Position numbers and translations under genes: made by a program. A stretch of DNA of 64,000 nt, taken from the NCBI GenBank assembly GCA_965261635.1, contig OZ253463.1:13089-77088 (forward strand), written 5' to 3'. Of the stretch, positions 6,732 to 53,090 are shown in pieces. The first letter of the stretch is position 1. Every line of letters starts with the position of its first letter. The stretch comes from Chloroflexota bacterium. GTDB lineage: Bacteria > Chloroflexota > UBA11872 > VXOZ01. A model generated the notes under the pieces. That model saw nothing but the letters and a program-made list of their open reading frames with translations, was not told the origin of the DNA and made no database searches.

Positions 6732-6850
6732 TCCGTTCATCCTTCGACAGGCTCAGGACGAACGGATTCTGACTTCCTCAAGGCGCGCACGCCCAGGACG
6801 AACAGATTCCGACATCCTCAGTTGCACGCTCGCTCAGGACGAACGGACGC
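6732..6850. repeat. REP-like family A (ccgttc..ccttcgacaggctcagg..gaacgg)
   Basis: Three partial units here; relatives near 40354, 42285-42560, 48469 and 48724. Confidence 0.7.
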
Positions 6851-33538: not shown

Positions 33539-35467
33539 AATTGAAAAGCGTGCAATACGGGAGCGCAGCATAGCAGCGCATTGCCACTGTTGGGATAGGG
33601 TGCCGTTTGCGGTGAAATGAGCAGTTGGCACAAAGAAGCCGAAATGCTCGAAGCAGGCATGGCTTGAGGTTCGGGCTAGTTCAAGCCAAGAGAGCGCGAA
33701 CCCAGGCGTCCCCATTGACCCAATAGCAATAGATTCCCCCAGAAGCCCAAATGACAAGCCTGGTATTCAAGGCTGCACTGCAAACCTCATCTTGGGTCCT
33801 TCAAGAAAGGGGAATAGGCCAAAATGCAACTTCATCAAAGCGATGGTCTCGGGCAGAACCACGCTCTTACCCGCGGATTTGACATTCTCTTGTGCAATGC
33901 TGCACAATCTTATTTTGGTGACGTGTTCGCATGCAAGGGCAAGGAGAATAATTGAATGGACATAAACACCTTGGTAAGTAGCATCACCCGTCGTAAGATC
34001 CTCGGTGGCTTTGCCGTCGGGGCCGGGGCCGTGCTCGCCGCAGCGTGCGGTGGCACGACTACCGCTATGCCTGCCGAAGAAAAGGCTGAGATGGCAGAGA
34101 AGGCCGAGCCCAAGGCCGAGACCGTGGCTCCTGTGGCCGAAGATGTCTCGATTCTCTATCTCACCTACACGCGGCCGGGCCGCAACGAGGCCGAGGCAGC
34201 GCTCTATGGCGCGTTCGAGGAAGCCAACCCCGGCATCAAGTTGGACATCAAGATCACTGATGGTGGCGGTCATGGAGTGCGCCAGAACATTCCGATTCTC
34301 TTCGCCGCTGGCACGCCGGTGGGTCTCTTCGAGAATACCTGGGGCACATGGCTGCAGTTCGTAGAAGGCGACCTCATCGTCTCCCTTACCCCGTTCATGA
34401 ATCGTGACGGGATCGATCCCTACGCTACCTTCATTGCAGAGGGTGTGGACTTTGTCTCCCACCAGGGCCAGACCTACGGCTTCCCGGCCAGCATGTCGGT
34501 CGACACGTGGGCGTACAACAAGACCCTCTTCGATACTGCGGGTCTGGAGTATCCGCCCACCGATCCAGACGATCCAAGCTGGACGATGGAGCGGTTCATC
34601 GACACTGCGGAGAAGCTCACCATCGGCACCGAGCAGTACGGCATGGGCCGGGGTTACACCGGTTTCAACACCTTTGGCATTGGTGACGGTACCTTCTTCG
34701 GCGGTCTGGCATGGGATGCCGAGAACCAAAAGGCGACCATGAACAACGAGCACTATCGCCAGGGCCAGAACTTCTGGGCAGACATCATCGACAAATTCCG
34801 CGTCATGCCGACGTCAGAGGAGCATGGCGCACTCACCGGCGGTAGGGCCGGTCACTACTTCTACTCCACCGGCGCCTTTGGCATGTCGGTGATGTTCGTG
34901 GTGCCGCCGGAAGCGGCCGAGGCTCCGTTCGACTGGGGTATCGGCGCGCTGCCGTACACGGGCGATCCGCCAAACCACTCCGGCCGTCACTACACGCACG
35001 CGACCTTCGTGGGCAACACCGATCACATCGATCAGACGTGGGAAGTGCTGAAGTGGCTGTTGGAGGGCGAGAACGGCCTTAGCTACCTCGAGCTGACCGG
35101 CCACGTAGTTACCCCGATGCTGCACCTCTTTGACAAGGCGAAAGCGCACTGGGAAGAAAAGCAAGGCGGCAAGGTGGACGCTTCTGCTTTCTTTGCCGAA
35201 GCGCAGCACACGCCGCAATCCGGCCACGGTATGCTGAAGTTCTCTAACTTCTTCGAGGTCAGAGACGTGCTCCAGCCGATCTACAACGAGATCCGCGCCC
35301 GCACGACAACACCAGAAGAATTCTTGCCCTTTGCCGACACCCACATCAACGAGAATCTCAAGGTCGAGTAGTACCGGCACCGGCTACCAGACGCTCACTT
35401 TCACGAGCGTTTGTAGGAGTTCGACAATAAAGGAGGGTCACCCAGTTGGGTGACCCTCCTTTGGTTT
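33539..35467 (+). repeat. tandem duplication unit, copy 1 (leader + SBP gene + terminator)
   Basis: Near-identical to 35751-37667. Confidence 0.9.
33956..35371 (+). CDS. ABC solute-binding lipoprotein, copy 1
   Basis: TRRKIL, AAC lipobox, YNKTLFD, WTME; aaggag RBS. Confidence 0.88.
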   Translation: MDINTLVSSITRRKILGGFAVGAGAVLAAACGGTTTAMPAEEKAEMAEKAEPKAETVAPVAEDVSILYLTYTRPGRNEAEAALYGAFEEANPGIKLDIKITDGGGHGVRQNIPILFAAGTPVGLFENTWGTWLQFVEGDLIVSLTPFMNRDGIDPYATFIAEGVDFVSHQGQTYGFPASMSVDTWAYNKTLFDTAGLEYPPTDPDDPSWTMERFIDTAEKLTIGTEQYGMGRGYTGFNTFGIGDGTFFGGLAWDAENQKATMNNEHYRQGQNFWADIIDKFRVMPTSEEHGALTGGRAGHYFYSTGAFGMSVMFVVPPEAAEAPFDWGIGALPYTGDPPNHSGRHYTHATFVGNTDHIDQTWEVLKWLLEGENGLSYLELTGHVVTPMLHLFDKAKAHWEEKQGGKVDASAFFAEAQHTPQSGHGMLKFSNFFEVRDVLQPIYNEIRARTTTPEEFLPFADTHINENLKVE

Positions 35468-35750: not shown

Positions 35751-37667
35751 AATTGAAAAGCGCGCAATACGGGAGCGCAGCATAGCAGCACATTGCTACC
35801 GTTGAGTAATGGTGCCGTGGGCAGTGAAATGAGCAGTTGGCACAAAGAAGCCGAAATCCTCGAAGCAGGCATGGCTTGAGGTTCGGGCTAGTTCAAGCCA
35901 AGAGAGCGCGAACCCAGGCGTCCCCATTGACCCAATAGCAATAGATTCCCCCAGAAGCCCAAATGACAAGCCTGGTATTCAAGGCTGCACTGCAAACCTC
36001 ATCTTGGGTCCTTCAAGAAAGGGGAATAGGCCAAAATGCAACTTCATCAAAGCGATGGTCTCGGGCAGAACCACGCTCTTACCCGCGGATTTGACATTCT
36101 CTTGTGCAATGCTGCACAATCTTATTTTGGTGACGTGTTCGCATGCAAGGGCAAGGAGAATAATTGAATGGACATAAACACCTTGGTAAGTAGCATCACC
36201 CGTCGTAAGATCCTCGGTGGCTTTGCCGTCGGGGCCGGGGCCGTGCTCGCCGCAGCGTGCGGTGGCACGACTACCGCTATGCCTGCCGAAGAAAAGGCTG
36301 AGATGGCAGAGAAGGCCGAGACCGTGGCTCCTGTGGCCGAAGATGTCTCGATTCTCTATCTCACCTACACGCGGCCGGCCCGCAACGAGGCCGAAACAGC
36401 GCTCTATGCCGCGTTCGAGGAAGCCAACCCCGGTATCAAGTTGGACCTCAAGATCGTTGATGGTGGCGGCACCGGCGTGCGCCAGAACATTCCGATTCTC
36501 TTCGCCGCTGGCACGCCGGTGGGCCTCTTCGAGAATACATGGGGCACCTGGCTGCAGTTCGTGGAAGGAGACCTCATCGTCTCCCTTACCCCGTTCATGA
36601 ATCGTGACGGGGTCGATCCCTACGCTACCTTCATTGCCGAGGGTGTGGACTTCGTCTCCCACCGGGGAGAGACCTACGGCTTCCCGGCCAGCATGTCGGT
36701 GGACACGTGGGCGTACAACAAGACCCTCTTTGAGACTGCGGGTCTGGAGTATCCGCCCACCGATCCAGACGATCCAAGCTGGACGATGGAGCGGTTCATC
36801 GACTCCGCTGAGAAGCTCACCAACGGCACCGAGCAGTTTGGCATGGGCCGGGGTTACACCGGTTTCAACACCTTTGGCATTGGTGACGGTACCTTCTTCG
36901 GCGGTCTGGCATGGGATGCCGAGAACCAGAAGGCGACCATGAACAACGAGCACTATCGCCAGGGCCAGAACTTCTGGATCGACATCGTCGACAAGTTCCA
37001 CGTCATGCCGACCTCAGAGGAACATGGTAACCTCACTGGCGGCAGGACCGGTCACTACTTCTACTCCACCGGCGCCTTTGGCATGTCGGTGATGTACGTG
37101 GTGCCGCCGGAAGCGGCCGAGGCTCCGTTCGATTGGGGTATTGGCGCGCTGCCGTACACGGGCGATCCGCCAAACCACTCCGGCCGCCACTACACGCACG
37201 CGACCTTCGTGGGCAACACCGACCATGTCGATCAGACGTGGGAAGTGCTGAAATGGCTGCTGGACGGCGAGAACGGCCTTAGCTATCTCGAGCTGACCGG
37301 CCACGTGGTGACCCCCATGCTGCACCTCTTCGACAAGGCGAAAGCGCACTTTGAAGAGAAGCATAGCGGCACTGTAGACGGCACGGCGTTCTTCCTGGAA
37401 GCCCAGCACACGCCGCAGTCCGGCCACGGCATGCTCAAGTATGCAAACTTCTACGAAATCAACGATGTCTTGGGCCCGCAGTATGCGGCCGTAAAGAATC
37501 GCGAGAATACCGTAGAAGAGTTCCTGCCGATTGCTGAGAACTACATCAACGAGAACCTCAGGGTCGAGTAGGAACGGCAACGGCTACCAGACGCTCACTT
37601 TCACGAGCGTTTGTAGGAGTTCGACAATGAAGGAGGGGCACCCACTGGGTGACCCTCCTCTGGTTTA
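35751..37667 (+). repeat. tandem duplication unit, copy 2
   Basis: Near-identical to 33539-35467. Confidence 0.9.
36168..37571 (+). CDS. ABC solute-binding lipoprotein, copy 2
   Basis: Paralogue of 33956..35371; lacks a 4-aa linker repeat and has a divergent C-terminus. Confidence 0.88.
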   Translation: MDINTLVSSITRRKILGGFAVGAGAVLAAACGGTTTAMPAEEKAEMAEKAETVAPVAEDVSILYLTYTRPARNEAETALYAAFEEANPGIKLDLKIVDGGGTGVRQNIPILFAAGTPVGLFENTWGTWLQFVEGDLIVSLTPFMNRDGVDPYATFIAEGVDFVSHRGETYGFPASMSVDTWAYNKTLFETAGLEYPPTDPDDPSWTMERFIDSAEKLTNGTEQFGMGRGYTGFNTFGIGDGTFFGGLAWDAENQKATMNNEHYRQGQNFWIDIVDKFHVMPTSEEHGNLTGGRTGHYFYSTGAFGMSVMYVVPPEAAEAPFDWGIGALPYTGDPPNHSGRHYTHATFVGNTDHVDQTWEVLKWLLDGENGLSYLELTGHVVTPMLHLFDKAKAHFEEKHSGTVDGTAFFLEAQHTPQSGHGMLKYANFYEINDVLGPQYAAVKNRENTVEEFLPIAENYINENLRVE

Positions 37668-37784: not shown

Positions 37785-38891
37785 TCAAAACAGCGCCACC
37801 TCTTGGGGAATGGTCCCCAGTCGCTGGAAGCCGTCGGCCTTCAGCACGTAAATGTCCTCCACGAGCCAGGAGGATTCCAGGGCGGATACATTATTCTCCT
37901 CAAACGTAATTTCCGGTTTAACCTCCAGGCTATGCGGCAACAAGCTGCCGAGTTGCGGTTCCTCGTGCACCTCCATGCCGACCCCGTGAATCCACCACAT
38001 GTACTCTTCGACATTCTTGAATTCTGCCCGGCAAGCGGCAAAGACCTCGCGTTTGCTCATACCGGGTCGGATGAAGTTTTCCATGAATATCTGGCGATCG
38101 CGGTGTTCTTGCCAAACGGCATAACTCTCCTTGAGCGGCGTGCCCAGGCAGAAATTAAACTTCTGGTCGGAAAAGTAGCCGCCGGCCACCGCTGAGTAGT
38201 CAACACGGTAGACCAACCCCTCTTCAACGACTTCCGGCCCGCGCACGAGCACGGAATCCGGCTGCTTGTACTGGCCCCGGCGCGGCACCATCCAGGATAT
38301 GGGGGCGGCATAGACGGGAAGCGCGTCGTGTTTGAGCACCGTTGCGGCCCAGACATTGTTCAGGTCCCGGAAGGAGATGCCGGCTCGTATCTCCTTCTGC
38401 ATCTCCCTGTATCCAGCCTCGGAGGCAGCGACGGCCTTCTCTATCCAAGCTAGCTCCCGCGGCGTCTTCATACTGCGCGCCCGCGCCAACAGCATGTCCG
38501 CAGCCTCGAACTGCACGTTTGGCAGGAGTTCTCGGAGCTTTGCCAGGTCGCTTATCGCAGCATAGTCCATGTCGAGACCCACCCGCGCCTGCCCAAGTTT
38601 TCGCGCCTGTATCTCCTCGGCCACGACCTGGAGTCGCGCGTCCCGCGTCTGGTCCGGCCGAAATCGGTCGAGCGGCATGTCGAAATCCGCCATGCGGCTG
38701 CCGCCGATCGCAAACGACTTGTCCGGCGGCGCGATGCACGTCATCCATGCGCCCAGGCCCTGCGGCTCGTTCAGCCACGGCTCTTCCGTAACATCTCCTG
38801 CTAAGTAGGCGCAGTTGCGCATGCCGAGCGTGAGCAACGCATCCAGACCCTGCTCTTCCATGAGCCGTGTGATCAAAGGAAAGTCAGCCAT
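37785..38891 (-). CDS. M24-family (Xaa-Pro/creatinase-like) peptidase
   Basis: ARSMKTPREL, VD.S....GYFSD, HGVGMEVHEEP, LE...VED. Confidence 0.8.
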   Translation of the reverse strand: MADFPLITRLMEEQGLDALLTLGMRNCAYLAGDVTEEPWLNEPQGLGAWMTCIAPPDKSFAIGGSRMADFDMPLDRFRPDQTRDARLQVVAEEIQARKLGQARVGLDMDYAAISDLAKLRELLPNVQFEAADMLLARARSMKTPRELAWIEKAVAASEAGYREMQKEIRAGISFRDLNNVWAATVLKHDALPVYAAPISWMVPRRGQYKQPDSVLVRGPEVVEEGLVYRVDYSAVAGGYFSDQKFNFCLGTPLKESYAVWQEHRDRQIFMENFIRPGMSKREVFAACRAEFKNVEEYMWWIHGVGMEVHEEPQLGSLLPHSLEVKPEITFEENNVSALESSWLVEDIYVLKADGFQRLGTIPQEVALF

Positions 38892-38918: not shown

Positions 38919-40280
38919 TCACGCGTTAGTATTGGAAATCGGCAGGCGCGCGGTTGCGCTAACACCGGCTGCGCCGCGATCCAAAGCGCTCACCTGCACC
39001 CACAATTTGGCCGGCAGAGTGTCGCCGTCCATCTCCACCGGGATGCGCACACGCTCCAACCCCGGCACGGGCGCAATTGCATGGCCCAGTTGGCGACGGA
39101 TTAGTATGTTGGGCTCTTCCATGGTGGCCGCGGGATCGGCCGGCGTGAGGGGATCGCCGGTGTACACGACCGCCAGCGCCCGCTTTATGTCAACCACGCC
39201 GCTATTCTCCACTGCCACGTCCAGAATAGGCCGTCCGGCGTCGCGTCGGAGCGCGCACTGTTCCGCGCGGACCTCAAGCCTGCGGCAGAGCTGCTCCGGC
39301 CGCAAGGAAACTCCCGCGTGGGCGTCCACAATCCCGTGACCCAGCCAGGGGTCCCAGCCCTCGCCCCGTGCCGTGTTACGTAGAATCTGGCGGATTTCCT
39401 CGTTAGAAAACTGTGGATACTGAGAGAAGAGAAGCGCGGCGACGCCCGCGCCGAAGCCGTTCGCCATACACCCTCCGTGAAACGATACGTACTCGCCGTT
39501 GCCGCCCGTGCCCCAAATGGTGTCACGGGGGTCATCCGTACCCTCGCCACTGGGAGCGGCGAATTCGGTATACGCGGTAGCGGGGGCAATACTGGCCGCT
39601 CTCCCGTGCCGGTTGGTAGAACCCACAGGGATTGAACTGTCAACGGCAGAGATGGGTGATACCATGCGGCGGCCGCGATTGTCGCCAGCACCGCGAAATA
39701 CCAAACAACCGGCGTCATATGCCCTGTCGAAGGCGTCGATGAGCGCGGGATTCTCGGTGGGATAGGTAAAATCAGTCCCTTGGTGGAACAGCGATTCACC
39801 GGATTCCCTATTCTTGGCAATGTAACAGTGGGAGAGCACGATGATCCGTGCGCCGTGGGCAACCGCATAGTCAATTGCACGCACCCAGCCGCCCTGATTG
39901 GTGCGATTATACGCAGCCCGCAGCGTCATGATGCGACAGTCAGGCGCAACCGCGGCAATCTCTCCCACGAGAAACGACCCGTGATCGCGGAAGTAGTGCT
40001 TCGTGGCATCGTATGGCGGGCCTTCGTACTCCAATGTGGCGTCCTCCTGGTCGAAGTCCCAGCCGTGCACGTCGCCGCGCAGCGGACGGGGATTGACCCA
40101 CAGGTGGCCCGCATGGTCCGGATGGTAGTGGTAGGCAATGTCGATAACGGCCACGATGACGTCCTTGCTGCCGCGCGTGACGGCATGCGCTTCCGGCACC
40201 CGCATCTGCTCGAGCGCCCAGTCATAGGGCGCGGTTACACCCTGGGGCAGTCCGTTCTTGCTCAATAGCGTAACTACCAT
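38919..40280 (-). CDS. S8 subtilase homologue with Cys at the catalytic Ser position
   Basis: VAVID (Asp), DVHGWDF, DHGS (His), GAGDN, AAPSG, FHGGCMANGFGAGVAALL, GHGIVDA. Confidence 0.8.
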   Translation of the reverse strand: MVVTLLSKNGLPQGVTAPYDWALEQMRVPEAHAVTRGSKDVIVAVIDIAYHYHPDHAGHLWVNPRPLRGDVHGWDFDQEDATLEYEGPPYDATKHYFRDHGSFLVGEIAAVAPDCRIMTLRAAYNRTNQGGWVRAIDYAVAHGARIIVLSHCYIAKNRESGESLFHQGTDFTYPTENPALIDAFDRAYDAGCLVFRGAGDNRGRRMVSPISAVDSSIPVGSTNRHGRAASIAPATAYTEFAAPSGEGTDDPRDTIWGTGGNGEYVSFHGGCMANGFGAGVAALLFSQYPQFSNEEIRQILRNTARGEGWDPWLGHGIVDAHAGVSLRPEQLCRRLEVRAEQCALRRDAGRPILDVAVENSGVVDIKRALAVVYTGDPLTPADPAATMEEPNILIRRQLGHAIAPVPGLERVRIPVEMDGDTLPAKLWVQVSALDRGAAGVSATARLPISNTNA

Positions 40281-40554
40281 AAGCTTCTCTCCTTGTCTCG
40301 AAATAGTGCCCGGCTAGTCAGATAGAGTGTGCAAGTAATCGGCAGCCAACCCATCCGTTCATACTTCGACAAGCTCAGCACGAACGGATGGGGCATTCCA
40401 ACGACACTCTACACGCAATCCTGCTTATCACACGGCGACACGGCGCTCTTGGCGTGTATCCAGTTCAGAGCCAAGAGCGCCGCATGCAACGCCCCACTGA
40501 CAGAGTCGTCAACACCGTGATAGGCCAGCGGCCCGGGTCGGCCAAAGCCTTCTG

Positions 40555-41973
40555 CTACTTACTTGCGTAGTATTCGTCGAGAAGCGCCTGCACTTCCTTG
40601 CTGGCATCGCGCATGGCTTCCTCGACCGTTGCCTCTTGGTTCCAGGCGCGCGCCCGATGCGCGCCGAATGCGCGAATGTACGGCAGCCACACGGCGTTAA
40701 TCTGGAAGGTGAAAAAAGCGCCGCTGCGCAAGGGCTCCAGATAGGCGTCCAGCTCCCGCGGCGGCCGGGACTTCTCGGTCTGCAACCGGGGATTGTCCCA
40801 CACGGTCCGCTTGACCGGCAAGCCATAGTTGTTGATGGTGTACTGGCCTAACTGCGACTCGTCGTCTGTGACGTAGAACTTCATCAGTTCCCAACCTTCG
40901 TCGGGCACTTTGGTCTGCGACCACAGATAGAAGCAGGCGCCGACCGCCGGCACCTTGTCGACCTTGCCTTTTACCATGGGAACCGCGTGTATGGGCAATT
41001 CCTCAACCTGAGGCGAACCCCAAGCGGATTCCTGACCGAGCAGGAGGTTCATCATCGCGGTGCGCTGGTAGGCAAAGGGCGCATGATACGCCTTACCCGG
41101 TTCAACATTCTCCGTGATGGCCGCAACGTCGTCTGCGGTGGGTGAGACGCGCCACTTGAATTCCAAGTTCCAAAGGAACTGGATGACCTCGATGAATTCG
41201 GGCTCGTGCATCGTGGATTTGGTATGGTCCTCGGAAAGGAACGTCGCCCCGTTCTGGCCCAGGAAGCCCAAGACGTCTGCGGTGACCTGCTTGTTGTTGA
41301 AGAAACCCCAAATCTGGTCTGTTTCCACGCTCGACCGTTGGGTAATCTCGCGAGCCACGTCAACGAACTCACCGCCGTCGTCCGGGTTCCAGGTGAGGGA
41401 GCCTCCGGGCGGATTCAAGCCGTACTTGTCGAAGATGGACTTGTTGTAAGCCGTGGCCGTAGTAATCTGGTTGATCTGAGTCACCCAGTAGGTACCGTCA
41501 GGGTCTTGACCCCAATCCTGCGCAATGACGTCCTCGAAGTCGGCGGCATCGCGCTTGTAATAGTTGGTGAGTTCAAAGCAGTGACCGGCGTCGCGGCGTT
41601 GCGGATAGAGCACGATGCCATGATGGAAAACGTCCGGGGCAGCACCGGCCGCAAGTTGTGTATTGACCTTCTCCGACACTTCACGATATATCGGGGCCGA
41701 CCAATTAACCGTGATGCTGGGGTTCTGCTCCTGGAAGCGGTCAACCACCGTTTTGCCCCAGAACGGCTCCACGGCGGACTGGTCGTTTGATATGAACAGG
41801 GCCGGGCTTCCATGGGCTTGGCCGCCTCTTCAGCGGCCTTGGGCGCGTCCTCCTTGGCAGCAGGCTCCACTGTAGGTGCCGCCACCTGACCGCACGCCGC
41901 GAGCCACACCGAACCTGCGCTTGCGGGCTGCCGATCCCCAAAGCAGGGAGCGACGCGAGAGTGTCTTTGCCAT
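40555..41973 (-). pseudogene. ABC solute-binding lipoprotein with two N-terminal frameshifts (pseudogene or sequencing error)
   Basis: MAKTLSRRSLL, then +1 shift near 41925 to ASAGSVWLAACGQ, then -1 shift near 41804 to ALFISNDQSAVEPFW. Confidence 0.7.
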
Positions 41974-42574
41974 AGCTAAGCCTCCATGAGTTCCGCACTT
42001 CGTATGCTCAGACTATTGAGACGACGCTAACTAACTCTCACTCGAGACTGGCTAGCGAATCCTCCCTTCCGTCAATCGGGCTACTCTTCCACACCTAGAG
42101 TAGTTGTACATCACGCCTCTACAAAAGTCAATCCCCCACCGAACGTTTGGAGCCCTCTTGACCTAACGGCGACGCGTAAGAAACTAGACCCAATTTCCTC
42201 TTCGGCACGTTCGGGGTAGGCTCTCTCGAAGTAAACACAGAGCGACGCGAGCCGAATATCGGCTATGCCGCCACCAAGGCTGTTCACCCTTCGACAAGCT
42301 TAGGGCGAACGGTTACGCTCCGCGCGGGTAGAGCTCCGCTCCGTGACGTTCCCCGCAAGCAAAGTCCTGCTCCGTTCGTGCTGAGCTTGTCGAAGCATGA
42401 ACGGAGTGAAATGTACTGATTAACCGCCATGCCGCTCCAGGGCTATTCACCCTTCGACCCTTCGTCAAGCTCAGGACAGGCACGTTTAGGGCGTACGTTT
42501 GCGCTCCGCATAGGTAGCGATACCTTAGGTTTGCGCTTCGACAGGCTCAGCGCGAACGGACATAGGCCGAAGAG

Positions 42575-42749: not shown

Positions 42750-43880
42750 TTAGCCCGCTGCTGCGCTGACAGGCTGCAGGACCTCCTGCAAACGGGTAAT
42801 CACCGTCGGCACGTCATCGGGACGCAGCGTAATCGGGTCGATGAAGAGGAAGCCCTCTTCGGCGTAATGGTCGCGCGTGTAGATGGGCGGGCTGCCGTCT
42901 ATGAGCGCCTCGCACACGGCCACGGCATCCATGCCCGCGACTGCGGGATCAACCACGATCTTGGTGCGGGTCTGCGGATTGCCGGTGACGTCCCGCTCGG
43001 CAAAGACGTTGACGCCGGGTATGCCCTGCAGCGCCGCCACCATCACGTCCACCTTGGCGTTTTGCCCGGCTTCCCACGCGGCGTAGTCAAGGTTCGCCAG
43101 CCACTCCATGCGCTCGATGACGCTCACCACGCCTTCCTTGGAGGGCTTCATAGCGCGGCCGATGCCGGTGCCTTGCAAGGCCGCGGCCGCAACCAAGTCG
43201 CGCTTTCCGGCGATCACGCCTGACGTGAAGCCGCAGAGGTGCTTGTGGCCGCTGAAGCAGACGGCGTCCGCGCCCTCCGCCAGCAAGCGGTGAGCAAAGA
43301 ATGCCCCGGCAGCGGCGTCAACAATCACCGGAATATTGTGGCGGTGGGCAATCTCGGCAAATGCCGGCAGCGAGAGCTGACCGCTGGTGGCGGTCATGTG
43401 GGAGATGACGTATAGTGCCGCCGCGGTCTCCTCCGTGATTGCATACTCCATTTGTGCGGGCAGCGCGCGGTTGGCCTCGCCAAACTCCACAGCCTTCGCA
43501 CCGCTAAGGTGGACCATCTGCGTCACCGGCGCGCCAAACCCAACCGTGTGCCGCTTCTGAATGATGACTTCGTTCTTCATGCGGCTGGTATCGGGCAGGG
43601 CCAGCACTTTACCGAGATGCGTGCCGGTCATGGCACCCGCGCACAGCACCGTGATCGCCGAAGCCGCGCAATGGGTCACCGTGCCGGCCTCCGCGCCGGT
43701 GGCATGCGCAATCGCCGCGTTGGCGGCGGCCAGCAGCTCCGACATGCGCGCGAACTCCGGCGCCGCCTCGACAACCCGTTCAACCACTTGCGGGGGTATT
43801 GAAGATGCGCCGAGCGTCGTCTGTGTCCCTGCGGTGTTGATGATTGGCGTCAGGCCGTACCGCTCATGATATCTGGACAT
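42750..43880 (-). CDS. SelA-like PLP-dependent enzyme (DgaE-like ammonia-lyase family)
   Basis: IINTAGTQTTLG, VDAAA, FSGHK, GIGRAMKPSKE. Confidence 0.8.
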   Translation of the reverse strand: MSRYHERYGLTPIINTAGTQTTLGASSIPPQVVERVVEAAPEFARMSELLAAANAAIAHATGAEAGTVTHCAASAITVLCAGAMTGTHLGKVLALPDTSRMKNEVIIQKRHTVGFGAPVTQMVHLSGAKAVEFGEANRALPAQMEYAITEETAAALYVISHMTATSGQLSLPAFAEIAHRHNIPVIVDAAAGAFFAHRLLAEGADAVCFSGHKHLCGFTSGVIAGKRDLVAAAALQGTGIGRAMKPSKEGVVSVIERMEWLANLDYAAWEAGQNAKVDVMVAALQGIPGVNVFAERDVTGNPQTRTKIVVDPAVAGMDAVAVCEALIDGSPPIYTRDHYAEEGFLFIDPITLRPDDVPTVITRLQEVLQPVSAAAG

Positions 43881-44144
43881 AAGGGGCAATCTCCTCTCTC
43901 TTGGCTCCCCAACTGTTCTTATATCTCCAAATGTGCTGTGGCTCCCTAAAGTGCGTAGGGGCACGGCATGCCGTGCCCCTACATTGTAAATCGCTTTCTG
44001 CGGTAGGTTGCCGCTAGGGCTCACACCGAAACACTATCTGCGACCGCAATTCATCGACAAAGAGACACAATCTTGCCAAGTACTATCCCCTCGTCCTTGC
44101 ATCCGCAAGATGTCGCGCAAGTTGCATTTGCTATGCTGTCAGTC

Positions 44145-46729: not shown

Positions 46730-47668
46730 CTAGTTCATCTGGTAGCCGCGGTTGACATCCGGCAATCCCACCGGTTTGCCCAGCGCTTCCGCCATGGCAC
46801 GCACGTGGTAGGGGAGCGCGCCGCAACACGCGCCGATGAATTCAATACCGATGCCCTCCGCTTCCTTAGCGTACTCCGCCATGACAAAGCGGGTGACTAC
46901 ACGCGGCTCGATGCGCGGGTAGAGACCGGCGCGGCTAATGGCTTGATTGAATACCTCGCCCGGCTCCAGTTGATACGCCGTCGGCTGGACGCAAACAGGC
47001 ACCGAGACCGCATCCCGAATGCGCCGCGCCATGTCGTTCATGGTCTGCCAGGGGCGCATGCAGTTCACCCCCACCACGTCAGCGCCGTTATCCACCAGGC
47101 GTTGCGCCGCCTCCACCGGATCGTAACCGTCGCGCGTAAACTCGCTGTCGCGGAAGGTGAGCGTAACCACGGCCGGCACGCCCGCCTCCTTGACGAAGGG
47201 GATGACCAAGCTCGCTTCTTCTACCGAGTAGAAGGTCTCAATGATGAAGACGTCAACACCGGGGTCCATCTGCTCTGCAACCCGCCGCGCAAAGAATTCC
47301 TGTGCCCGTTTGCGGTCGTCTGCGTCTAGCCGCTCCCACTTGGATGAGCCGGAATAGATGAACTGGCTAACGGTGCCGGCCACGTAGCGGTCCGGCCCGG
47401 CGGCCTCGCGGGCCAATTCCACCGCTACTCTATGCAACTCCGCCTCGCGCCCAAAGGGTCGCACACCCCAGGACATGGCCTGCAAGAGCTCCGCGCCCGC
47501 ACGGGCGAACTCATGGTGCATTTCCAACACGGCTTCCGGATGGTTCAGCACGGCCATAGGGATATGCGAGGCATAGCTGCCCACTACCCGGCGCTCAAGC
47601 TCAAGGTAATATGCGCCGTCGCCAAGCAGCGGCCCTTGCGCGAGACGCTCGAGAAAATCCGCTTTCAC
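46730..47668 (-). CDS. homocysteine S-methyltransferase family protein (BHMT-like)
   Basis: GDGAYYLELERR, HHEFARAGA, GVNC, GACCG, YHVRAMAEAL. Confidence 0.85.
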   Translation of the reverse strand: MKADFLERLAQGPLLGDGAYYLELERRVVGSYASHIPMAVLNHPEAVLEMHHEFARAGAELLQAMSWGVRPFGREAELHRVAVELAREAAGPDRYVAGTVSQFIYSGSSKWERLDADDRKRAQEFFARRVAEQMDPGVDVFIIETFYSVEEASLVIPFVKEAGVPAVVTLTFRDSEFTRDGYDPVEAAQRLVDNGADVVGVNCMRPWQTMNDMARRIRDAVSVPVCVQPTAYQLEPGEVFNQAISRAGLYPRIEPRVVTRFVMAEYAKEAEGIGIEFIGACCGALPYHVRAMAEALGKPVGLPDVNRGYQMN

Positions 47669-47905
47669 CAGCCTACTCCTCATGGTTACAATTGCACGCA
47701 TGCATATCATACTGGAATAACGGCAGAGTACCTATTCTGCTTCTGCAGCGTAACCGCAGTCTTGCCCCGCCACACCCCCGCTGACCGGCCCTTCAGTGGT
47801 CATGGCAGTAAACGGAGGATGTAGCTGATGGCACGTGTGCCGGAAGGTGCGCGACCGCCCAACTATTGAGGAGAGCGGGCAAACCTGCTAGAATGACCTC
47901 GTGAG

Positions 47906-51348: not shown

Positions 51349-52611
51349 TCACACCGTTACGGGGGCGCGTTCCAGTCCGCGCACTGCCTCTTCGAACGAT
51401 TCTACGTGCGGCGTAATCCGAATCGTCAAATCGAGGGTATCTGAGACCGCCTCCTGCGCCTTGAGCCCATTGCCCGTGACATAAGCCACCGTGACCTCGT
51501 CGGGCGCGATCTGCCCGTTTTCGACCAGCTTCTTGAGGGTGGCAATCGTCACGCCGCCCGCGGGCTCGGTGAATACGCCCTCCGTCGATGCCAGTAGCTT
51601 GATTGCCTCCACCACCTCCTCGTCGGTGACGGACTCGATGATACCGCCGGTATCCTGCGCAATCTTCACGGCGTGGTAGCCATCGGCGGGATTGCCGATA
51701 GCCAACGAATGGGCAATCGTGGTCGGCATCTTCACCGGCCTGATGGCGGTAGTATTGGCGGCGAAGGCTTCCGCCACCGGGCTACATCCCTCGCCCTGTG
51801 CGCCGGAAATGCGCGTGTGCGGCGTGCCCGACAGCAACCCCACCTTGTACAACTCGTTCAGCCCCTTGTACACCTTGGTGTACAACGAGCCGGAGGCAAT
51901 GGGCGCCACGATGTGGTCCGGCGCGCGCCAGCCCAACTGCTCCACCACCTCGTACGCCAGCGTCTTCGATCCCTCCGAGTAGAAGGGGCGGATGTTGATA
52001 TTGACGAAGGCCCAAGCGTAGCGGTCGGCAAGCTCGCTGCAGAGGCGGTTCAGCTCGTCGTAGGTGCCTTCCACCGAGACCACCGTAGCGCCATACACCG
52101 CCGCGTTCACCACCTTGCCGTGCTCCACGGTGTGGGGCAGGAAGACGAAGGTGCGCAGGCCGTTGCGCACACCGGCGGCGGCCGTTGCGCTCGCCAGGTT
52201 GCCGGTGGAAGCGCACGCAAACGTATCGAACCCAAATTCCTTGGCCTTGGCTACCGCCACCGAGACCACCCGGTCCTTAAAGGAGAACGTTGGATTCACG
52301 CTATCGTTCTTGACGTAGAGTTCCTTCAGGCCCAGAGCCTTGCCCAGGTTGTGGGCGCGCTGCAAAGGCGTAAAGCCGACCCGCCAGTCCAGGTCTTCCC
52401 CATGCTCCACGGGGAGCAGGTCCTTATAGCGCCAAAGCGAAATCGGCCCCTGCGCGATCTTCTCGCGGCTGGTTATCTCGCGAATGGCATCGTAATCGTA
52501 TTCGACCTCCAGAGGGCCGAAGCAGAAGGAACAGACGTACGTCGGTTGCACGGGATAGCGCTCCCCGCACTCCCGACACTTCAGTCCCCGTATTCGTTCC
52601 ACATTGTTCAT
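51349..52611 (-). CDS. thrC: threonine synthase-like PLP enzyme
   Basis: CRECG/CSFCFG, NPTFSFKDR, ASTGN, EGSKT, EPAGG, TGNGLK. Confidence 0.8.
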   Translation of the reverse strand: MNNVERIRGLKCRECGERYPVQPTYVCSFCFGPLEVEYDYDAIREITSREKIAQGPISLWRYKDLLPVEHGEDLDWRVGFTPLQRAHNLGKALGLKELYVKNDSVNPTFSFKDRVVSVAVAKAKEFGFDTFACASTGNLASATAAAGVRNGLRTFVFLPHTVEHGKVVNAAVYGATVVSVEGTYDELNRLCSELADRYAWAFVNINIRPFYSEGSKTLAYEVVEQLGWRAPDHIVAPIASGSLYTKVYKGLNELYKVGLLSGTPHTRISGAQGEGCSPVAEAFAANTTAIRPVKMPTTIAHSLAIGNPADGYHAVKIAQDTGGIIESVTDEEVVEAIKLLASTEGVFTEPAGGVTIATLKKLVENGQIAPDEVTVAYVTGNGLKAQEAVSDTLDLTIRITPHVESFEEAVRGLERAPVTV

Positions 52612-53090
52612 AGTTCGGCGTCTCACTTGCTTCGACTAGCTCAGAACTAACATTTTTCACTCGTGCGCCGTCTCATGGACCAGCCCGGCGCCATCTCCGG
52701 TATGTCGTTTACCTAGCTCCCTCTCCCACCGCGTCTTGCTCCCTCTGCCATTGTCTCTTACTCCCTCTCCCCGTGGGAGAGGGTTGGGGTGAGGGTCTTG
52801 CGCTCATCTGCGTTCCGACACCTGACGTAGCTTCTCAAGAATTGTGTTCGCTAAGATATTGCCCGCAGCGGGGCATGCACGGCAACCCACCAACGTCCGT
52901 CGATGTCACGCTTCTGCCGTACGTGTGCGTCCCCGCGCGCCTGGCAGCGTGCCCATAGATTAAGCGAGTGCCGTCCAACGCTCCCGGTACGAACAGCCGT
53001 TCGCATTCATCCGAAATCAAAATTCCCATTAAATAAGAACAACCCCTTTCTCTTTCCTTATAGAGAGGGGTCGTATGTCGCAATATTTCC

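Follow-up and report, generated by a model that had tools for sequence, protein, structure and literature searches.

A conserved subtilase family with cysteine at the nucleophile position, a candidate natural thiol-subtilisin, in Chloroflexota and other uncultured organisms

We analysed a 64,000-nucleotide stretch of contig OZ253463.1 from a Chloroflexota bacterium (assembly GCA_965261635.1, positions 13,089 to 77,088 of the forward strand), called the window below. The gene at 38919-40280 on its minus strand encodes a subtilase (peptidase family S8) of 453 amino acids (aa) in which cysteine (Cys271) stands in place of the nucleophile serine of subtilisin. We are highly confident that this is a genuine Cys-nucleophile subtilase maintained by selection. 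Judged from its residues, the window protein would be an S8 homologue by descent, yet not a serine peptidase. It is probably a functional cytoplasmic Cys-His-Asp amidohydrolase or peptidase acting on an imported substrate, that is, a natural thiol-subtilisin, and the reaction is rather likely to be the hydrolysis of an amide. Nature appears to have made the “thiol-subtilisin” that was first built by chemists.

When 5.8 billion proteins were searched with a word index, 109 relatives of the window protein were obtained (E ≤1e-59, 44-96% identity, mostly 430-500 aa), separated by a gap in score from the next ordinary S8 proteins, which followed at E ~1e-13. The window protein and these close relatives are referred to as the core family, whose members measure about 445 aa and combine an S8 domain with a C-terminal beta-sandwich. 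Homologue counts were taken from a MAFFT alignment of 110 proteins, and residues were mapped by aligning both the window protein and the family profile with solved subtilisins in HMMER. The gene and its active-site codons, with the equivalent residues of subtilisin BPN', are:

38919..40280, minus strand: coding sequence of the Cys-nucleophile subtilase (453 aa, P0001), an intact open reading frame (ORF)
40289..40294, minus strand: Shine-Dalgarno-like AAGGAG, 8 nt 5' of the ATG, from reading the sequence
40140..40142, minus strand: codon of Asp47 (BPN' Asp32), by HMMER alignment; Asp in 104 of 110 homologues, with 6 gaps
39981..39983, minus strand: codon of His100 (BPN' His64), by HMMER alignment; His in 106 of 110
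39678..39680, minus strand: codon of Asn201 (oxyanion Asn155), within the motif D-N-R-G-R-R; Asn in 110 of 110
39468..39470, minus strand: TGT codon of Cys271 (nucleophile Ser221), reading aca on the plus strand
39456..39458, minus strand: codon of Gly275 (BPN' Pro225), by HMMER alignment

Cys271 was kept in 106 of the 110 homologues (the remainder being one Ala, one Leu and two gaps), and its neighbours Met272 and Gly270 were found in 108 and 107 of them, respectively. All 46 genes read off genome contigs encoded Cys at this position, using TGC in 36 cases and TGT in 10, and the four closest orthologues showed synonymous differences at the codon. The initial annotation, which had proposed a thiol-subtilisin from the sequence of the window, had suggested inspecting homologues and reads at 39468-39470. 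Both checks upheld the Cys: close homologues do not have Ser, contigs of an independent study (run X5) were identical across the Cys271 codon, and a contig from an RNA library (X15) had the synonymous TGC. No difference at 39469-39470 appeared among the listed contig differences. The ratio of nonsynonymous to synonymous substitution rates (dN/dS) was 0.083-0.119 when the gene was compared with these four orthologues, and six further pairs gave 0.069-0.141. The gene is under purifying selection, and represents neither decay nor a miscall. The suggestion of an adapted enzyme rather than a decaying one was borne out by the conserved Cys and by these ratios (0.07-0.14).

The Asp motif (VAVID, residues 43-47), the His motif (DHGS, 99-102), the SHC strand (150-152) and the Cys motif with its TGT, all named in the initial annotation, were confirmed by the sequence and by HMMER alignment. 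The nucleophile motif, HGGCMANGFGAG, occupies residues 268-279. The serine triad of S8 peptidases is incomplete in the window protein: Asp47 and His100 are present, but Cys271 lies in G-G-C-M-A and not in G-T-S-x-A. The oxyanion-hole Asn of S8 is in place, Asn201 falling on Asn155. The earlier statement that the oxyanion AGN reads AGD arose from a register slip of one residue: the segment reads AGDN (198-201), Asn201 is retained throughout the homologues, and Asp200 is a one-residue insertion before it in the subtilisin alignments. The residue pair typical of subtiligase, Cys at 221 with a small residue at 225, is also present (Cys271, Gly275). Phe276 aligns with BPN' His226, and Ser150-His151-Cys152 align with Ser125-Leu126-Gly127.

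The oxyanion Asn is followed by an Arg-rich loop. Arg202 aligns with Glu156 of BPN' (HMMER), which we take to be a residue of the S1 rim; Arg204 and Arg205 are invariant in a 66-sequence family alignment, and Arg204 is present in 110 of 110 homologues. This loop hints at an acidic or carboxylate-bearing substrate or P1 group.

The Peptidase_S8 profile (PF00082) matched residues 39-316 of the window protein over positions 2-288 of 288 (E 1.7e-17), and its score of 64.1 bits, against a cut-off of 21.8, places the protein in family S8. An AlphaFold2 model built with the 66 family sequences (mean predicted local distance difference test score 90.9, predicted template modelling score 0.92) consists of a subtilisin-like alpha/beta domain followed by a beta-sandwich:

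39291..40229, minus strand: subtilisin-fold catalytic domain (about residues 18-330), from the Pfam match, the AlphaFold2 model and Foldseek
38943..39278, minus strand: C-terminal beta-sandwich domain (about residues 335-446) with the motif Q397-x-G399-H400, from strands in the AlphaFold2 model

The first 50 Foldseek matches of the model in the PDB were all subtilisins except one lanthipeptide protease, and the top match was the peptiligase 7am7_A (engineered S221C; E 6.8e-20, template modelling (TM) score 0.84 normalised on the target). The C-terminal QxGH motif is well kept in the homologues (Gln397 in 107 of 110, Gly399 and His400 each in 106). ESM Atlas clusters of the relatives are generic subtilases only, some of which carry CARDB. 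No NCBIfam family scored above its cut-off for the window protein; the best were mycosin TIGR03921 (98.2 vs. 278.75) and PatA/PatG TIGR03895 (25.1 vs. 421.05), both below. Pfam found no inhibitor_I9 prodomain in the window protein. Because the stop-to-stop frame around the gene has just 464 codons and the N-terminus begins about 17 residues ahead of the point aligned with the start of mature subtilisin, there is no space for a prodomain or a signal peptide, and the earlier remark that neither is visible holds for the window protein.

The substitutions that accompany Cys were followed beyond the core family. An exhaustive HMMER scan across 1.84 billion cluster representatives yielded 6895 matches at E ≤1e-3 (27 at ≤1e-30), of which the best 150 were viewed, and residues around the nucleophile column were tallied from fetched proteins aligned to the family profile (115 core and 15 distant Cys domains, 113 Ser domains). 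The distant Cys domains matched at E ~1e-37 to 1e-16 and mostly read G-G-C-M-A-x-P-H. The tightest correlate of Cys was position 220, which is Gly in 128 of the 130 Cys domains; of the 113 Ser domains, 104 have Thr there and one has Gly. Position 225 is Pro in 103 of the 113 Ser domains. The small residue noted at 225 in the window protein is general in the core family, where the 115 Cys domains have Gly (95), Ala (13), Ser (6) or Glu (1), and never Pro. Since 12 of the 15 distant relatives retain Pro225-His226 beside Cys, the alignments indicate that a change at 225 is not obligatory for the Cys form. In one subclade of the wider Cys clade, Glu replaces Asp32 (AVIE...).

A quick IQ-TREE maximum likelihood tree (LG+G4, Shimodaira-Hasegawa-like approximate likelihood ratio test (SH-aLRT) only, unrooted) was computed from 86 rows and 303 columns after removal of the nucleophile column, sampling 22 sequences from the 103 of the core family and 50 from the 100 with Ser. 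A branch with SH-aLRT 97 separates all 32 Cys rows, together with one Ser and one Gly row, from the other 52 rows, 49 of them Ser. This is compatible with a single origin of the Cys form, without proving it.

The 3.63-Mb genome that contains the window has three thiol-subtilase genes altogether, including a second core-family paralogue, 58% identical. The third is a distant paralogue of 494 aa (G000:C1:1099629-1101113; locus L082 1393-2877) with the motifs AVIEKGF (Glu for the catalytic Asp), DHGTH, GGNQ and GGCMAIPHV (Cys, with Pro225-His226 kept). It also carries the C-terminal QxGH motif as QLGH. From these motifs it is a possible Cys-His-Glu variant of the S8 triad.

Gene neighbourhoods were counted within 8 kb in 46 loci; two of 48 (L007 and L022) were left out, an antisense ORF having been chosen there over the S8 gene. 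Neighbouring ORFs were longest-ORF calls, some of which may be spurious, and one representative was annotated per neighbour cluster. In the window, the order along the minus strand is a solute-binding protein gene, the Cys subtilase gene, 27 nt, and a gene for an M24 peptidase-like protein:

40555..41772, minus strand: SBP_bac_1 solute-binding protein gene, upstream, with its 5' end out of frame with the lipoprotein signal
37785..38891, minus strand: M24 peptidase-like gene (Creatinase_N and Peptidase_M24), downstream, beginning 27 nt past the stop of the Cys subtilase gene

The neighbours recurring among the 46 loci are:

CE4 polysaccharide-deacetylase-like: 23 loci
M24: 18 loci, all Chloroflexota
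DUF3604/CehA-McbA-like metallohydrolase: 18 loci
Gfo/Idh/MocA oxidoreductase: 17 loci
enolase-superfamily protein: 13 loci
DegT aminotransferase: 10 loci
URO-D/MtaA-like: 10 loci
AraC regulator: 8 loci

The M24 partner pointed out in the initial annotation is thus a conserved one in Chloroflexota, and it adjoins the Cys subtilase gene in both paralogous loci of this phylum, with the gene order reversed between them. The link to a solute-binding protein, proposed at the same time, stood for the closest orthologue group only, and in the window the 5' end of that gene is out of frame. The enolase-superfamily representative scored above the NCBIfam cut-off for galactonate dehydratase (325.8 vs. 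311). For 28 loci outside Chloroflexota, Pfam families were tallied over the 95 nearest ORFs: Gfo/Idh/MocA (9), CE4 (9) and URO-D (8) were the most frequent, followed by DegT, AraC, BNR sialidase-like and DUF3604 proteins (3 each). Further carbohydrate-active or esterase-like neighbours were dienelactone-hydrolase/glucuronyl-esterase-like and GHL6/GH42-like. No precursor of a ribosomally synthesised and post-translationally modified peptide (RiPP), and no ATP-grasp, ester-forming or other ligation gene, was found among the neighbours (these 95 ORFs and the annotated cluster representatives). The theme suggested by the gene content is the catabolism of imported nitrogen-containing carbohydrate or peptide material.

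Cys271 as the nucleophile in vivo, hydrolysis as the reaction and the class of substrate are what we infer from sequence and context. The catalytic machinery would be Asp47-His100-Cys271, with the oxyanion hole formed through Asn201. According to excerpts of PMC7921005 and PMC6642262, conversion of the subtilisin Ser to Cys cripples activity, and according to that of PMC7921005 a small residue at 225 relieves the crowding caused by the thiol and restores activity. By analogy with engineered subtiligase, the changes at 220 and 225 may provide room for the larger sulfur, and evolution may have re-optimised the site by Thr220 to Gly first and Pro225 to Gly, Ala or Ser later, in the core family. 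Cys271 would attack the substrate to give a covalent acyl-thioester intermediate, which would then be hydrolysed, as in a peptidase or amidase. The bond cleaved would be an amide in an imported small peptide or in an amino-acid-decorated sugar compound, and the adjacent M24 peptidase-like enzyme might complete the breakdown or trim the product. Our guess at the substrate is either an acidic peptide or a sugar acid that bears an amino acid in amide linkage.

Several observations weigh against a cytoplasmic amide hydrolase. Engineered thiol-subtilisin is a poor amidase (excerpts of PMC7921005 and PMC6642262), so a Cys subtilase need not be able to hydrolyse amides. At several positions of the cleft, the window protein differs from the consensus of its family (SHC for PHG, HG for HH and AGDN for TADN). 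About 12 of 100 family members have a signal-peptide-like N-terminus, one of them twin-arginine-like, so that the family is not uniformly cytoplasmic; most members lack a signal peptide, and none has space for a prodomain. Contigs from RNA libraries (X15, X16 and X19) align with the gene at 90-99% identity; DNA carry-over is possible, and they are no proof of transcription. Finally, the neighbourhood differs between phyla. It suggests the breakdown of sugars or amino sugars no less than that of peptides, and an ester or a non-peptide amide could therefore serve as substrate.

This last point leads to the rival that survives best, although we consider it doubtful: an esterase, thioesterase or deacylase whose substrate is not a peptide but, for example, an O- or S-acyl group carried by a sugar or cofactor. 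Thiol-subtilisin keeps activity on activated esters, and the neighbours are often carbohydrate-active or esterase-like, CE4-like genes being present in half of the loci (23 of 46). In the excerpts of PMC7921005 and PMC6642262, the activity of thiol-subtilisin is described as drastically reduced, with none on common esters. However, the S8 substrate-binding architecture is made for peptide backbones, and the M24 partner in Chloroflexota indicates peptide or amino-acid amide chemistry.

A natural subtiligase (a transpeptidase, peptide ligase or macrocyclase), whose thioester acyl-enzyme would for the most part react onward with an amine, appears quite unlikely for the window protein. The core family has the same two-site solution as engineered subtiligase (Cys221 and a small 225), and the top Foldseek match is a peptiligase, in part owing to the shared Cys. 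The excerpt of PMC7921005 adds that thioester intermediates favour aminolysis, and that Gly is among the residues that improved synthesis over the 225Pro parent in a position-225 library of peptiligase. On this reading the enzyme might, for example, re-link or exchange amino acids on imported peptide or glyco-amino-acid substrates. However, no precursor peptide, ATP-grasp, ester-forming or RiPP/ligation gene occurs among the neighbours that were looked at, the context is catabolic and transport-linked, Pro225 is kept beside Cys in 12 of the 15 distant relatives, and the PatA/PatG macrocyclase model reached just 25.1 bits against a cut-off of 421. The preference of the initial annotation for a ligase, cyclase or acyl-transferase was therefore not sustained by the catabolic gene context and the retained Pro225, while its view of an adapted enzyme was. 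The broader proposal, that the core family as a whole is the natural counterpart of subtiligase, its site (Cys221, Gly220 and small 225) selected for an amine-resolved thioester, and that it forms the first Cys-nucleophile lineage known in the subtilisin clan, an old one occurring in at least 10 phyla, is likewise unlikely, if slightly less so.

A pseudo-protease, that is, a non-catalytic binding or regulatory protein tolerating Cys at a dead nucleophile site, is very unlikely. S8 precedents exist in CspA and CspC of C. difficile (excerpt of PMC7200643), and in a few rows of the clade the nucleophile site is occupied by Ala, Leu or Gly, but all four catalytic positions are conserved jointly, Ser is one base change away from TGT or TGC and yet Cys stands in 46 of 46 genes, and dN/dS is about 0.1. 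Sequencing error or private mutation of an ordinary serine subtilase, for which no point in favour was found, has next to no probability and is refuted because the Cys is family-wide, both Cys codons are used and the same codon was seen in an independent run.

Compared with known systems, the proposed thiol-subtilisin shares with subtilisin BPN' and other S8A subtilases the fold, the order of the catalytic residues (Asp, His, oxyanion Asn, nucleophile) and Met222, at about 22-25% identity to solved subtilisins and TM scores of 0.78-0.85 normalised on the target. Unlike BPN', it has Cys instead of Ser, Gly instead of Thr at 220 and Gly instead of Pro at 225; it lacks a signal peptide and an I9 prodomain, both typical of S8 but not universal, and it adds the C-terminal beta-sandwich with QxGH and the Arg-rich D-N-R-G-R-R loop after the oxyanion Asn. 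The Bacillus intracellular subtilisin proteases are, we assume, alike in being cytoplasmic S8 enzymes without signal peptide or classical prodomain, and different in their Ser nucleophile. Cys at 221 with a small residue at 225 is shared with subtiligase, peptiligase and omniligase (S221C and P225A/N), and these are grouped here with chemical thiol-subtilisin. The window protein differs from the engineered ligases in being natural, about 23% identical, with the extra T220G and in a catabolic context, and its wider-clade relatives keep Pro225. The PatA/PatG cyanobactin proteases/macrocyclase and the mycosins, whose NCBIfam models came closest while remaining far below their cut-offs, both use Ser. 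A natural exchange of nucleophile from Ser to Cys has a precedent in the chymotrypsin fold, in the viral 3C-type cysteine proteases (excerpt of PMC6642262). These differ from the window protein in belonging to another fold and clan.

The fold and family of the window protein are familiar, and the nucleophile class is new, with the signature motifs G-G-C-M-A, D-N-R-G-R-R and a C-terminal QxGH. Since 1966, thiol-subtilisin has served as a textbook example of a “chemical mutation”, and commercial peptide ligases build on the S221C/P225A subtiligase; the two were regarded as artificial. To our knowledge, no Ser-to-Cys exchange has been described for the subtilisin clan, and we know of serine families only in MEROPS clan SB. 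A full-text literature search, largely outside subscription journals, found no description of a natural cysteine subtilase. Automatic annotation calls these proteins “S8 family serine peptidase”, a label that would have to be corrected; at least 109 clusters at 90% identity were matched in one database search. If the assignment is true, a passage between serine and cysteine catalysis has taken place in the subtilisin clan as it has in the chymotrypsin clan, and these proteins would be evolved templates for the engineering of ligases or thiol-hydrolases. The compensating changes on offer are Gly in place of Thr220 throughout the clade, Gly, Ala or Ser in place of Pro225 in the core family, and Glu in place of Asp32 in one subclade. 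The assignment would also indicate that catabolic loci of uncultured Chloroflexota, Planctomycetota, Verrucomicrobiota, Armatimonadota and other phyla contain an amide-cleaving step that is still to be characterised.

All genome contigs carrying the core family come from uncultured organisms. Chloroflexota contribute 20 loci (L001-L018, L031 and L045), and at least four Chloroflexota genomes have an orthologue-type and a paralogue-type copy together. Further hosts are Armatimonadota, Planctomycetota, Verrucomicrobiota, Kiritimatiellia, Lentisphaerales, Gemmatimonadota, Spirochaetales and Clostridia, along with single bins labelled Bathyarchaeota and Paceibacterota, for which the binning may be wrong. 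In the paralogous Chloroflexota locus (L005-L018, L031 and L045), two or three tandem DUF3604/CehA-McbA-like genes of about 600 aa precede the M24, Cys subtilase and CE4-like genes.

Other features of the window surround the gene. In the upstream solute-binding protein gene, a lipoprotein-signal-like start (ORF 41481..41909) lies in another frame than the body (40555..41772). Related strains, represented by contigs in three RNA-library runs, have an insertion of 10 nt at 41802-41804, so the window copy is probably either frameshifted or mis-assembled at that spot. A stretch of about 15 kb inside the window holds five SBP_bac_1 genes, with one gene for an ATP-binding cassette ATPase. Two of the five, in tandem at 33956-35371 and 36168-37571 (plus strand), have identical first ~50 residues and are closely similar throughout. 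No permease was found among the annotated ORFs of at least 200 aa near these five genes, the segment 26193-28349 lying outside the annotation. A pyridoxal phosphate enzyme of the DgaE family (D-glucosaminate-6-phosphate ammonia-lyase-like) is encoded at 42750-44024 (minus strand; 285.6 bits, below the cut-off of 385.3), and genes of the homocysteine S-methyltransferase family (46730-47710, minus strand) and the PALP family (51349-52626, minus strand) flank the locus. By their family assignments, these three genes suggest a catabolic island for amino-sugar acids or amino-acid derivatives.

A palindromic element lies between the solute-binding protein and Cys subtilase genes (40351-40391) and recurs at 42372-42404 and 6733-6765. 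The 71-nt stretch 40335-40405 has a folding energy of -32.3 kcal/mol (z -4.86). The full 41-nt hairpin is single-copy, repetition being confined to its 33-nt core, of which the 3.63-Mb genome holds 41 copies at ≤3 mismatches vs. 0 for the reversed control. The core translates to F-D-K-L-S-T-N-G, and many unrelated contigs in the sequencing runs match the element. From its sequence, it looks like a family of repeats of the repetitive extragenic palindromic type.

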